Notes: generated by a model from the letters alone, not told the origin. Counted from the first letter of the stretch, positions 28,749 through 33,165 are shown. The stretch is DNA of 64,000 nucleotides from Promethearchaeati archaeon (GCA_013166775.1 JABLTJ010000004.1:32001-96000), one strand, 5' to 3'. A program made the numbers and translations.

Positions 28749-30215
28749 TTATGAAAATGTTTCTGTCATAAACGTGCATAGATCAAAAATCCGTGTACTG
28801 AAAATTAAAAATACGATAACAAGGAAAAGTGAGAATAAAAGTGCCATATATATGCTAGGCTCAACTGTAGAATAACGAATAGTTGGTACTCTTCTCTCAA
28901 AGTATAAAATCTTCAAAATCCTTGCAAGATATACAAATGAAAGTACTATTTGTAGATCGAATAGAACCATTATAAAATATAATGAGGAAGGCATGAGACT
29001 GTAATTAAAGAGATTCGTTTGAAAACCTATTGCGATTGGAAAAGCAAAGAGAAGAATGAATGCTAGAAGCATCAGAAAAGGTAGGAGATAGGTTCTTCTA
29101 CCTAAACCTCTTAGATCATTTAACTCAAATGTATCATAACCCTTTGAAATTATGCTAGTAACAGCTAAAGTAAAGGAATAGAATAGAATATATGCCAAAG
29201 ATAGATAACATAAACCTTGATAGATATTTACTACAATCTCTTGATCGATATTGAATGAAAATAAGAAAGAGATTAGAAGAAAAATAAAACCTATATGAGA
29301 AAGACTCACGTAATTAACGAGTTTTTGTAATTTTTCTTCTGTCATTGAAGCTAAAATTCCCCAAAATGTGAAAATAATTCCGGAAATAACAAAGATCCAT
29401 TGAAGAACTTTTGAGTAATCAGAATATCTGAAAATACTAAGTATTTTAATCAAAAACACTATAGATATACCTCTCTGAACAACGATTAACAATTGTGAGG
29501 ACGAATTCTTTTTCTGATCTGAATGAGAGAAAATCCTGAGATGGAAAGGTGGGCATCCGAGCTGAATATACAGGAAGAATAGAATGAAAGATAGACATAG
29601 AAATTCCCAAATCTTTTGGATTCCTAACATGTTATGAATATGATAAGAATTTTCAGTAATATTGTAACAAATTATACTCACGAAAAGAATAACTATCGAC
29701 AAAGCGTTCATTATGAAATAAGGTGAAATGAAGTTTTGATTATTATCTTCGTTCTGAGTATACATAATTCGAATGTAAAAATTAAAGGAAGCGAAAAGTA
29801 AAATATACCCAAGAAAGACCAAAAGCCAAGAAACTGCGGAAACGATAAAAAAACTACCTGCTTGAATGAGAAGAAGTGAAATAAATGCATTAAAACTCTT
29901 TTCTGAGCAGATATCTGTTTCCTTAATAGTAACAAATTCTGCAAGAATAATGCCAATGCTGATTACTAAATAAGCACCAACTGAGAAGGGAGAGAATTCA
30001 CTAAGAAAGAAAATTGATGTCTCATATTGAAAAGGGGATATAGTATAACCTATTGCTATCATTGAAATAATGCTACAGATTATTGATACATAACCAAAGA
30101 GTATCCTCATCCTCCCATTAAAAATGAGAAATTTCCTCACAATCTTATTTGCTAATCCACCTAATATCATAAGTGAAAAAACACCTATTAATAATATCTC
30201 AATATGGAGGAACAT
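28749..30215 (-). CDS. Divergent NuoN/MrpD-like antiporter-fold membrane subunit
   Basis: About 14 TM; LG.PPFH, KLVNYVSLSHIGF, DLRGLGRR, FP...GF, YLARILK motifs of the proton-antiporter family. Possible CTG start at 30242. Confidence 0.78.
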   Translation of the reverse strand: MFLHIEILLIGVFSLMILGGLANKIVRKFLIFNGRMRILFGYVSIICSIISMIAIGYTISPFQYETSIFFLSEFSPFSVGAYLVISIGIILAEFVTIKETDICSEKSFNAFISLLLIQAGSFFIVSAVSWLLVFLGYILLFASFNFYIRIMYTQNEDNNQNFISPYFIMNALSIVILFVSIICYNITENSYHIHNMLGIQKIWEFLCLSFILFFLYIQLGCPPFHLRIFSHSDQKKNSSSQLLIVVQRGISIVFLIKILSIFRYSDYSKVLQWIFVISGIIFTFWGILASMTEEKLQKLVNYVSLSHIGFIFLLISFLFSFNIDQEIVVNIYQGLCYLSLAYILFYSFTLAVTSIISKGYDTFELNDLRGLGRRTYLLPFLMLLAFILLFAFPIAIGFQTNLFNYSLMPSSLYFIMVLFDLQIVLSFVYLARILKILYFERRVPTIRYSTVEPSIYMALLFSLFLVIVFLIFSTRIFDLCTFMTETFS

Positions 30216-30264
30216 TTTTAGAAACTCAACATGATAACTCAGTCGATATCACCTCTACTTAGTC

Positions 30265-32217
30265 TCATTTGACGGTACCTCCAAAGTAAAAAGCTATTAC
30301 AATAATTAGTAAAATGATCATGAAAACAGCAGCTAGCTGTAATTGTTGTTTAAGATTGATTCCCTCTAAATGTCTCAGAAATTTAGATGCGTTTTCAAAC
30401 ATTCTTTTTATGAAGGGGATAATTATGTCAAAAACTAATTTTCTTAAACCTTTGACTAAAATCCTTAACCATAAGTAAGTGTAACTAAAAACAATTCCAA
30501 CAAAGAATCCAATAATTATTCTTTTCTTAATCCAAGCAGCTGAGGGGAGTATTATTTTCAAGTAAATTACTGCACATAGCTCAAAGATGAAATCATATGT
30601 AATAATCTTTTGAAGAATATCACTAATTGACTCAGTTTTATGGGAGAAAAACTTTTGTTGCCTTTTGAAATAGCGAGTTGTAAGTATGAATAATAAACTG
30701 AAAATAAAACCTATAGCTGCAACAGGTAAAGCTGATTTCAGGTATAATCTTGATTCAGATAAGATAATCACTGGAAAGTGTTCTAAAGGTAATAGATAGG
30801 GTAATAACACACTAAATAGGATTATAGCTAAAGAGCTTCCTATTAAAATAAACACGTTTAATAGTTCTATTTCAGATTGAGATTTCTGAATCCATATTTC
30901 GTTTACTGTTCGAAAAACTAGATAAACGATAAAAGCTGAAGATATTATTCCACAGGCTAAAAGTCCATTATTGAAAAGAATATCTGCGTGATCTAAAGTG
31001 TAAGTAATAGAAACAAGAGAACTATTCAATGGAGGAATCCCTATTAGCGATAGACTCGCAATTAAGATTGGGATCGATAATAATACTGAGACTAAGATAG
31101 AGGGAGAAGATTGTTTTTCTCCTTCTTCAATAGTTTTTCTCTCCTTTAAAACATAAACAGAAAGTATGCTAAAGATGAAAGGAAGAAGAATTATTTGTTG
31201 GAAAGCAGCTATATAAAAATCCAATCCAATGGTGAAAAGAATTATTCCACTGTAAAATGATAACAGCAATGTTAAAGCAACCTTTTTCTTTTGTATCAAA
31301 ACAGCTAAGACTGAACTCAAGAGAGCAATAATGACTCCATACCATACTATTCCATTCTTAATTAATGAAATTATCCCAATATAAGGTGTTATGTAGAAAA
31401 ACAGTAGTATTACAGATATATATAAGAAAACTATTTGAAATATCCAAGGAATATTTGAATTCCACGATTTTCTCTTCCACTCATGAAATGGGAAAAGTGA
31501 GATTTTTGCAGTTAATCCAACAAGAAAAATACTACAAACAGCAATGAAAAATGGATGAGAAAGATTATAGTGGAAACTGATGTCGTGCAATATGGAGGAA
31601 AAATCGAAAGTCTTAGAAAGTTTTATGATTAGTCCAAAGCTGGATAATAAAAATGAATTTCCAATAATAAGAGAAAATATCACTTGTTTTACACCTCTAA
31701 TATCACCTAAATCTGAATTTCTGAAGGAAATCTGAATAAACCTAAGAATCACTATATCTAGAAAAATCATAAACAACGTAAGTTGGAAGAAATTAGGCGA
31801 ATAGAGCAAGAGAACAAAAATAGCTAAAAAGAGTGAGATTTTGTCAAGATAGTTTTTTTGCATCTTTTCTTTATTCAGAATAATTCTACAGGATAAGAGA
31901 GAAGATATAATAAAGAAAAATGAATAAGAGAGAATTTGTATAGATTTTATCTGAAAACCTAATTCAAACATAAAGTTTTTGCTTCCAAACAGAAGGATTT
32001 TGGTAGTGATTTCACTGAAAGATCCAGTGATTTTTAAGAAGAGAAAAACGATTAACAGACTTAGAGGAAGCACCAGGTTAACTGTTGTGAACACCATCAT
32101 ATTAGCTAACCTTGCTTCCCTTTCTTCAGTAAAAATCAAATTGAAAAATCTTCTTAGAAGAGGGAATAATAACAGTATTATAACCTGTATTGTTAAGATT
32201 AAAGAAAAACTATCCAT
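30265..32217 (-). CDS. Divergent NuoL/MrpA-like antiporter-fold membrane subunit with lateral helix
   Basis: ELGFQI, PNFFQL, TAKISLFPFHEW, SLIGIPPL, C-terminal amphipathic helix ending SKFLRHLEGINLKQQL plus a final TM. ATG 32217 after GAGTGA. Confidence 0.78.
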   Translation of the reverse strand: MDSFSLILTIQVIILLLFPLLRRFFNLIFTEEREARLANMMVFTTVNLVLPLSLLIVFLFLKITGSFSEITTKILLFGSKNFMFELGFQIKSIQILSYSFFFIISSLLSCRIILNKEKMQKNYLDKISLFLAIFVLLLYSPNFFQLTLFMIFLDIVILRFIQISFRNSDLGDIRGVKQVIFSLIIGNSFLLSSFGLIIKLSKTFDFSSILHDISFHYNLSHPFFIAVCSIFLVGLTAKISLFPFHEWKRKSWNSNIPWIFQIVFLYISVILLFFYITPYIGIISLIKNGIVWYGVIIALLSSVLAVLIQKKKVALTLLLSFYSGIILFTIGLDFYIAAFQQIILLPFIFSILSVYVLKERKTIEEGEKQSSPSILVSVLLSIPILIASLSLIGIPPLNSSLVSITYTLDHADILFNNGLLACGIISSAFIVYLVFRTVNEIWIQKSQSEIELLNVFILIGSSLAIILFSVLLPYLLPLEHFPVIILSESRLYLKSALPVAAIGFIFSLLFILTTRYFKRQQKFFSHKTESISDILQKIITYDFIFELCAVIYLKIILPSAAWIKKRIIIGFFVGIVFSYTYLWLRILVKGLRKLVFDIIIPFIKRMFENASKFLRHLEGINLKQQLQLAAVFMIILLIIVIAFYFGGTVK

Positions 32218-32491
32218 TGTTATCACTCCCAGAATCTTCTGATTCAATTGAAACAATCAGGTGATCTCTAAATTGAAAAGCAAACATTATTGATATAGCT
32301 AGCAGCCCAAAGATTACAAATACTACGTTCTCCGCAGATAATTCTGAAAAACTAAGCAAAACTATACCTGATAGAACCATCAAGAGAAAACCAAAAAGGA
32401 TATTTACGTTCTTTTTAGAGCTTATGATAATTAATAAACTAAAACACAAACAAAGAAAGAACAAAGCTATGAGACTGTTTAAGAATACCAT
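32210..32491 (-). CDS. Divergent NuoK-like 3-TM subunit
   Basis: 93 aa, 3 TM, KKNV after TM1, position between J-like and L-like genes with overlapping ends. Confidence 0.55.
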   Translation of the reverse strand: MVFLNSLIALFFLCLCFSLLIIISSKKNVNILFGFLLMVLSGIVLLSFSELSAENVVFVIFGLLAISIMFAFQFRDHLIVSIESEDSGSDNNG

Positions 32492-33165
32492 GTTTCATCC
32501 TTCCTTTTTGTGTATCTTTTTTGAATATCTAATGTGAAAATTATGAAGAGTACCACAATTAGTAAGCAAGTGAAAATAACAAGTATTAGAACACTAAAAT
32601 GACCTGAAAAAATTTGAATTAGAGAATCATTCTGAAGCAATATTGCTTTATCATTTTGCAATTCGTAGACTATAAATCCAGTGATAGTTAATGAAGTTAA
32701 GAAGAAGAACAAATCAGTTACATATTTTGTAACTTTCTTATCTTTCTTTTGATCTTTGTTTCCGTCATCATACACATTGTAAATTGATAGATAGATGAAA
32801 AGAACATATGCGAAACCTAGATTTAATATAAACAAAATAATTTGACCCATTGAGAGAAATATGAAAGTAAATGATATGTAAGATAATAGTAAACATAACG
32901 ATTTTAATTCAGTTAACTTAAAAATTGCTTTTAGTAAAAAACCAATACTCATAAACGATCCCATGAAGAAAAAACTGTCTCTTTTTACTTCTAATAACAA
33001 AATAACAATTATTGAACTTACAATAATGAGTAATAGTTTAGCAGCTAACCAAGCTTTTGGTTTCTTATATGAAGATACTGGATAGATAATGAGAAAAGCT
33101 ACGATTAAACCACAGATTGAAATAAGTATCGTGGATATTGTAGTAGACAAGCCAAACATATTCAA
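32479..33165 (-). CDS. Divergent NuoJ-like subunit with two extra N-terminal TMs
   Basis: FIFLSMGQIILFILNLGFAYVLFIYL resembles NuoJ TM2-TM3; QIFSGHFSVLILVIFTCLLIV resembles NuoJ TM5 (LF.pY...E....LL). Confidence 0.55.
   Translation of the reverse strand: MNMFGLSTTISTILISICGLIVAFLIIYPVSSYKKPKAWLAAKLLLIIVSSIIVILLLEVKRDSFFFMGSFMSIGFLLKAIFKLTELKSLCLLLSYISFTFIFLSMGQIILFILNLGFAYVLFIYLSIYNVYDDGNKDQKKDKKVTKYVTDLFFFLTSLTITGFIVYELQNDKAILLQNDSLIQIFSGHFSVLILVIFTCLLIVVLFIIFTLDIQKRYTKRKDETWYS

Follow-up and report, generated by a model that had tools for sequence, protein, structure and literature searches.

What can a membrane arm of the complex I type do when no redox genes accompany it and most of its charged relay residues have been replaced? 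This question is raised by a locus in a 64,000-nucleotide stretch of DNA (GCA_013166775.1 JABLTJ010000004.1:32001-96000; hereafter, the window) from a Promethearchaeati archaeon of the Heimdallarchaeaceae, located on contig C2 of a 3.85-Mb genome in 115 contigs with the G+C content of 33%. Four intact open reading frames (ORFs) occupy positions 33165..28749 of the minus strand in the order NuoJ-, NuoK-, NuoL-, and NuoN-like (below, J, K, L, and N), J and K overlapping by 13 nucleotides (nt), and K and L, by 8 nt (ATGGATAG). An earlier note, made from the sequence alone, had described four uninterrupted J-K-L-N ORFs in a window devoid of nuoM, redox, and NuoH genes, and the ORF calls with their overlaps agree with this description. 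No homologues of NuoM, NuoH, or NuoD were found within the window, no NuoH/NuoA or redox (B/C/D/I) module was found either at the locus or elsewhere in the window, and the remaining genome-wide matches to PF00361, PF00146, and PF00346 all lie on a different contig, C54.

The module is a lineage-restricted membrane complex derived from the NuoJ-K-L-N part of an arm of the complex I/membrane-bound hydrogenase type; the folds have been kept, and, as read from the alignments, most of the ionisable relay residues have given way to hydrophobic residues or amides. Canonical passage of protons through the arm would, we infer, be impossible. The reading we prefer is that this charge-depleted arm forms a non-pumping platform, clamped by the lateral helix of L and, in most genera, associated with two secreted proteins encoded upstream, S1 and S2. 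To the statement as a whole we assign a probability of about 0.55; its functional part taken alone would have about one chance in three.

The most readily recognised subunit is N (28749..30215; 488 amino acids, aa), which matches PF00361 (Proton_antipo_M) with 39.7 bits (cut-off 21.5; E 4.4e-10) over profile positions 2-292 of 294, and the NuoN models of NCBIfam with E 2e-16, far under the equivalog cut-offs. Its best relatives of solved structure are plant ND2 (7ar7_N, E 4e-8) and Nqo14 of Thermus. Single-sequence searches of Pfam, NCBIfam, and PDB with the other three proteins yielded nothing usable: L had no match in any of them, J had none in Pfam or PDB, and K matched Pfam Oxidored_q2 weakly (E 0.016). 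For L (30265..32217; 650 aa from a conserved ATG), an exhaustive search among 1.84 billion representative proteins found 22 relatives, and the last three tested carry PF00361. The profile built from 11 family members matches NdhF (6hum_F, E 1.9e-22) and mycobacterial NuoL (8e9g_L, E 4e-12). The AlphaFold2 (AF2) model of L, built from 28 family sequences, has a mean predicted local distance difference test score (pLDDT) of 81 and a predicted template-modelling score of 0.79. It comprises a beta-hairpin after transmembrane helix (TM) 2, broken TM7 (222-239 / 246-252) and TM12 (374-392 / 400-406), a continuous helix at 543-618 (about 75 residues), and the last TM at 622-645. The top 50 matches of this model in the Foldseek search against PDB are all ND5, NuoL, or NdhF, with template-modelling scores of 0.59-0.74 over about 620-700 columns. 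Given the helix 543-618 and these full-length matches, the lateral helix and the C-terminal anchor of L are kept, as had been proposed before from the sequence by eye. On these profile and model comparisons, L and N are true homologues of complex I subunits.

The identity of J and K is less direct. J (32479..33165; 228 aa from a TTG start, with a conserved Met at 33159) has two extra N-terminal TMs, a NuoJ-like core, and a conserved tail of the DEPWYS type, and its position and length are conserved across all loci examined; K (32210..32491; 93 aa) has three TMs and no mid-membrane Glu. The sizes, topology, and order of both fit NuoJ and NuoK, and the profile scores are low: the J family profile (alignment A2) ranks Escherichia coli NuoJ top of 10 controls with 12.7 bits (positions 62-168 against 3-115 of NuoJ), and the K family profile (A3) ranks the canonical NuoK of the same genome top of 10 controls with 8.3 bits. 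Neither family profile has a significant match in PDB. In a predicted complex of N and J with K as the partner, the interface score ipSAE is 0.72, versus 0.04 for the best of three controls. Of the solved complexes, 58 out of 80 reach this mark, as do two out of 110 mismatched pairs; complex I having been solved already, the score shows likeness and not proof of binding. The runs share at least 93% of the contacts, with pLDDT of the partner of at least 70. In the prediction, K is wedged in a complex I-like manner, with residues 129-191 of N (TM5/TM6) on one side and the core of J on the other. The former Glu site of N, I138, is predicted to contact residues 61-68 of K, where the Glu of NuoK would lie, and thus the charged link between N and K would have been replaced on both sides.

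All current models of coupling in complex I and Mrp centre on the conserved Lys/Glu/His chain of the antiporter-like subunits, and we mapped the residues of this chain by aligning E. coli NuoL, NuoN, and NuoK to the family profiles. Of the sites of NuoL, E144 corresponds to I164, hydrophobic throughout the family; R175, to Ile; D178, to N200 (Asn in eight and Asp in three family members); K229, to K251 (Lys in 10, Arg in one); H254, to V276, with Tyr three residues later in most sequences; H334, to Gln, about half of the family having His; H338, to Leu; K342, to Phe; and K399, to I417. Four residues after the E144 site, at D168, all 11 family sequences of alignment A1 and two distant genera have Asp or Glu. 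In N, E133 corresponds to I138; K217, to Q218 (Gln, Asn, or Leu in the family); H224, to H225, that is, it is retained; K247, to R248, where 11 out of 12 relatives as well as distant genera have Arg or Lys; K295, to Q297 (Gln or Lys in the family); and K395, to N401, a variable site with Lys or Arg at or beside it in several lineages. The weak alignment of K places Leu at the E36 (TM2 Glu) site and shows no conserved acid in the middle of TM2 or TM3, the sole semi-conserved acid being E/D54 in the TM2-TM3 loop.

The central charged axis (TM5 Glu, TM7 Lys, TM8 Lys/His, TM12 Lys/Glu) is mostly gone: L keeps K251 and N keeps R248, the remaining axis sites of both are hydrophobic or amide, and several former Lys sites are Gln or Asn. 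As an internal control, canonical L of the same genome keeps eight out of eight key residues, and canonical K keeps E36. Of the charges, L retains a buried pair, Asp168 and Lys251, and N retains a single central Arg/Lys, R248. The losses claimed in the earlier note hold in L for E144, R175, D178, H254, H338, K342, and K399, with K229 kept as K251, and in N for E133, K217, and K395. The absence of Glu from TM2 and TM3 of K is also reproduced, within the weak alignment described above. The note overstated the case for L, missing D168 and the His/Gln at the H334 site, and for N, where its "TM8 VQR" is in fact a retained basic residue, K247 being replaced by R248.

Is such a module maintained? The L-like gene, free of internal stops, is present as one copy in 25 of 30 other genomes of the GTDB family (f1, Heimdallarchaeaceae), including 22 of 24 species of the genus represented in the window, whereas its profile has no match in the 368 other Asgard genomes searched. 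No frameshift or stop was observed in this gene in 26 genomes, and the gene sets are intact at every locus examined in five genera (with L shortened in genus g5). The layout S1-S2-J-K-L-N is kept at about 20 loci, although L and N are only 24-33% identical; the start/stop overlap junctions are conserved among the loci, and the motifs persist at 18-30% identity. The ratios of nonsynonymous to synonymous substitution rates (dN/dS), computed against two relatives at 74-91% identity, are 0.27-0.31 for J, 0.06-0.08 for K, 0.18-0.21 for L, 0.135-0.137 for N, 0.25-0.31 for S1 and S2, and 0.095 for the adjoining polyprenyl synthetase gene. All genes of the module are under purifying selection. The proposal that the complex is maintained and not decaying thus stands: in the checks suggested with it, the relatives yielded no disrupted orthologue of L, none of the genes evolves neutrally, and a canonical, fully charged arm exists elsewhere in the genome. 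The complex I-like assembly predicted for K, N, and J also supports it.

That canonical arm lies on contig C54, in a cluster with the order hypE-hypF-H-(155 aa)-J-K-L-M and with B/C/D-like genes on the opposite strand (L004:5635-18821). It belongs to the kind of short-armed complex I-like group 4 [NiFe]-hydrogenases reported for Heimdallarchaeia (bioRxiv 10.1101/2024.07.04.601786). The two loci share the organism and the J-K-L order of membrane subunits, but the C54 proteins score 190-450 bits in Pfam and NCBIfam and are linked to redox subunits, whereas the module has no redox genes and has lost most of the key residues that canonical L (all eight) and canonical K (E36) retain. A recent duplication of the canonical arm was considered and rejected: the L-like profile scores canonical L poorly, and, by this measure, the module is not a recent copy of the C54 arm. 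Pairwise alignment also shows Thr at the TM7 Lys site of the C54 M-like subunit and no second Glu in C54 K (V76).

Compared with the arm of complex I itself (Nqo10/11/12/14; ND6/ND4L/ND5/ND2; NdhF), the module shares the J-K-L-N gene order, the ND5/NuoL fold of L (the beta-hairpin, the breaks in TM7 and TM12, the lateral helix, and an anchor resembling TM16), the PF00361/NuoN match of N, the predicted position of K between TM5/6 of N and J, the Lys in TM7 of L, and the PFH motifs. It differs in that the locus has no genes for NuoH, NuoA, NuoM, or the Q module, in the replacement of the Glu of TM5 and of NuoK, the Lys of TM12, the His of TM8, and the H338/K342 sites (with His or Gln at H334), in the two additional N-terminal helices of J, in the divergence of J, K, and L beyond the Pfam thresholds, and in the two secreted paralogues found upstream in three of five genera. 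A search of one literature library found no description of such a J-K-L-N module.

Variation between genera bears on which parts can be dispensed with. In two complete genomes of genus g5 (G015 and G016), the place of L between K and N is taken by a gene for only 151-152 aa (L054:2538-2996; L056:5081-5536), which overlaps its neighbours at both the start and the stop. The last approximately 100 residues of its product align to the last approximately 120 residues of L (hhalign E 2.9e-4) and keep the motifs Y.K.I.P and S.F.R.(L/F)E...L..Q and the terminal GG. The N-terminus is charged and poorly conserved, with KEVEDI repeats in one species and a non-repetitive sequence in the other, and the two proteins are 66% identical, mostly in the L-like C-terminal part. 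By this alignment, the antiporter core of L is absent from g5, and only the lateral helix and the anchor survive; of the functions suggested in the earlier note, this deletion favours the scaffold. One genus, represented by G011 (L020:8967-10454 / L050:9331-10818), has an extra N-like paralogue of 495 aa, N', between L and N (order J-K-L-N'-N), with Glu at the TM5 site (LEIL), unlike other N-like proteins. With this extra paralogue, the arm of the G011 lineage has three antiporter subunits.

The proteins S1 and S2, encoded immediately upstream, were not seen by the earlier note, whose idea of repurposing otherwise holds. S2 (33222..34013, minus strand; 263 aa) is predicted to be secreted, with a C-terminal TM, and S1 (34010..34936, minus strand; 308 aa from a GTG start), secreted and C-terminally anchored; the stop of S1 overlaps the start of S2 by 4 nt. 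The two are paralogues with a common GNFTTFG motif; both start with a signal or anchor helix, contain numerous NxS/T sites, and end in a TM followed by a basic tail. Neither has a Pfam match. The mean column identity is 61% in the alignment of S2 (A6; that of S1 is A5). Apart from weak mutual cross-matches, both are single-copy, and both stand beside the module wherever contigs allow; in each genome with S2 and the L-like gene on one contig (most of those listed), the distance between them is no more than about 1-2 kb. Genera g1, g2, and g5 have S1 and S2, whereas in g3 and g4, the two distant genera represented by G013 and G014, J-K-L-N stands without them. Modelled by AF2 on an alignment of 12 rows, S2 gave a poor structure (pLDDT 46), and its match to LPXTG-type proteins in the ESM Atlas has a feature score of 0.77, which is under the useful level. 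In g5, S2 is 449 aa long (L054:202-1551 in G015; L056:2746-4095 in G016) and carries an insert of approximately 190 aa with weak, sub-threshold Pfam matches of the Ig-like/PKD-like type, which fits an extracellular role. S1 and S2 may be companions of the module.

Taking all this into account, we propose that a core of J, K, and N, with the lateral helix derived from L as its strap, would act as a non-pumping membrane platform, and that in three of five genera this platform would pair with the secreted, membrane-anchored S1 and S2. Such pairing would suggest that the complex serves the cell surface or the organisation of the membrane and not bioenergetics. The more specific version, in which the platform clamped by the NuoL-type lateral helix holds a surface glycoprotein pair in the membrane of the Heimdallarchaeaceae, is offered tentatively, as the less probable form of the proposal; under it, the lateral helix and not the pump core of L would be the indispensable part.

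Several observations weigh against this proposal. The divergence is fast enough to make the alignment of single residues uncertain by about one helical turn, and the membrane subunits evolve rapidly in comparison with their surroundings, being about 27-33% identical versus 58-83% for the neighbouring genes (N is 28% identical to its g5 counterpart). The assignment of J and K is weak, as it rests on low profile scores, gene order, and the predicted complex. As S1 and S2 are absent from two genera and perhaps belong to a separate transcript, they are not core parts. Finally, the residual Asp/Lys pair of L, the kept Arg/Lys of N, and the broken helices with PFH motifs could form some path for an ion or a substrate, which the Gln, Asn, and His residues at several former Lys sites could also serve.

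The last of these points leads to the main rival explanation, a stand-alone Mrp-like (Na+/K+)/H+ transporter or a transporter of another ion, using a reduced polar path through D168/K251, N200, Y279, and H/Q353 of L and Q218, H225, R248, and Q297 of N. It is the best of the alternatives, and we consider it possible though rather doubtful. In its favour, conservation is among the highest in the broken TM7 and TM12 with their Pro/His motifs, the Lys in TM7 of L (10 out of 11, with Arg in one) and the TM8 Arg/Lys of N (11 out of 12) are kept across genera, some lineages have Lys or Arg at or beside the TM12 site of N, and the genome has no other PF00361 proteins able to form Mrp. Like Mrp, the module is stand-alone and redox-free, and its subunits can be paired with those of Mrp, L with MrpA, the N/M-like subunit with MrpD, K with MrpC, and J with the C-terminus of MrpA. 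Yet neither a membrane Glu in K nor the TM5 Glu/TM7 Lys pair by which N would be linked to NuoK is present, Arg does not shuttle protons, and the entire antiporter core of L has been deleted in g5 with the rest retained. The gene order is of the nuo type, with only four membrane genes across the loci examined and none like MrpB, MrpE, MrpF, or MrpG; the C-terminal extension of MrpA and the conserved Lys/Glu of Mrp are absent. L is closer to NdhF than to MrpA (7d3u_A, E 0.018 only), and no Mrp protein is among its top 50 structural matches. A true Mrp operon was therefore rejected, as MrpB/E/F/G are missing and L, at 650 aa, ends in the NuoL manner.

The three other explanations are less likely than an ion transporter. 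An accessory or alternative arm could dock onto the C54 hydrogenase-like complex or swap into it, and the C54 arm is indeed short, with only two antiporter-like subunits, as noted for Heimdallarchaeia in general (bioRxiv 10.1101/2024.07.04.601786). We find this improbable, as the J and K of the module would duplicate the canonical ones, the two clusters do not share a contig, the module comes with no NuoH or NuoA partner, and the poor score of canonical L against the L-like profile speaks against a recent duplicate. Equally improbable is a lipid or polyprenyl device (a scramblase, a flippase, or a membrane-shaping scaffold) tied to the conserved neighbours. These comprise two MsbA-like ATP-binding cassette (ABC) exporters, a polyprenyl synthetase, two myo-inositol-1-phosphate synthases, and a sugar epimerase, and the block ABC-ABC / J-K-L-N / polyprenyl synthetase / synthase-synthase / epimerase is kept in four of five genera; g5 has the same genes rearranged, with the ABC pair beyond the synthase genes. 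The hydrophobic character of former hydrophilic channel positions would suit such a device too. Against it, shared gene order among genomes of close relatives is weak evidence, the polyprenyl synthetase gene is missing from the site in G013, TATA-like elements suggest separate transcripts, and, to our knowledge, no lipid transporter has the fold of antiporter-like subunits. Least probable, by far, is a decaying remnant of a respiratory arm with pseudogenes in progress. Most catalytic residues are lost, divergence is very fast, and three of the four proteins have no Pfam match, as decay would predict; but the L-like gene is undisrupted in 26 genomes, the gene sets are intact in five genera, dN/dS is 0.06-0.31 for every gene, and overlapping junctions and motifs are retained despite the divergence. 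With the intact L-like gene and these ratios, pseudogenisation is effectively excluded.

Should the module prove to be a non-pumping platform, as we prefer, it would be the first natural takeover of a respiratory antiporter module (the complex I/Mrp arm) for a non-bioenergetic role. A charge-depleted arm under selection beside a normal arm in one genome would separate the features needed for fold and assembly from those needed for ion transfer, and the g5 form of L, reduced to helix and anchor, bears on the long-debated role of the lateral helix as a clamp or a piston. The host lineage is in the Asgard class closest to eukaryotes, and a lineage-specific membrane or surface complex is of interest for Asgard cell biology.

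The extent of the transcription unit can be considered from the intergenic regions. A TATA box (TTTATAAA) and GGAGG precede the GTG start of S1, the gap between S2 and J (56-62 nt) holds TATA-like AT-rich elements, and a TATA-like sequence is also present in the 45-nt gap between N and the polyprenyl synthetase gene (27729..28703, minus strand; PF00348, E 3.6e-47). In a genome with such a G+C content, TATA-like elements are weak evidence either way; as far as they go, S1/S2 and the polyprenyl synthetase gene may be transcribed separately from J-K-L-N. A seven-gene operon comprising S1, S2, J-K-L-N, and the polyprenyl synthetase gene was considered and found unsupported, given these elements in both gaps and the absence of S1/S2 from two genera. 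The polyprenyl synthetase gene follows N in most loci (not in G013); it is a conserved neighbour and not necessarily part of the module.

Two start sites deserve comment. The L-like ORF is open from TTG at 32256 (32256..30265, 663 aa), the conserved ATG being at 32217. In orthologues, N begins with MSYH..., and the corresponding start codon is here CTG at 30242, directly behind a Shine-Dalgarno-like site (GAGGTGAT); this is probably the ancestral start of the gene. The first ATG is at 30215, nine codons downstream, and so the spacing between L and N is 49 nt by the ATG call and 22 nt from the ancestral start. Either CTG 30242 would initiate translation, or the protein would be nine residues shorter in this genome.

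Two further observations concern the surroundings of the module. The tandem myo-inositol-1-phosphate synthase genes (window positions 25489-27709) encode paralogues that share about 40% identity in relatives; together with the epimerase gene and the two genes of MsbA-like ABC exporters, they adjoin the module in all five genera. Farther along (22662-24491), a gene for a 609-aa protein with a weak N-terminal match to the PIN domain lies upstream of the gene for a KaiC/RecA-like ATPase and is also found in the syntenic block of the relatives.

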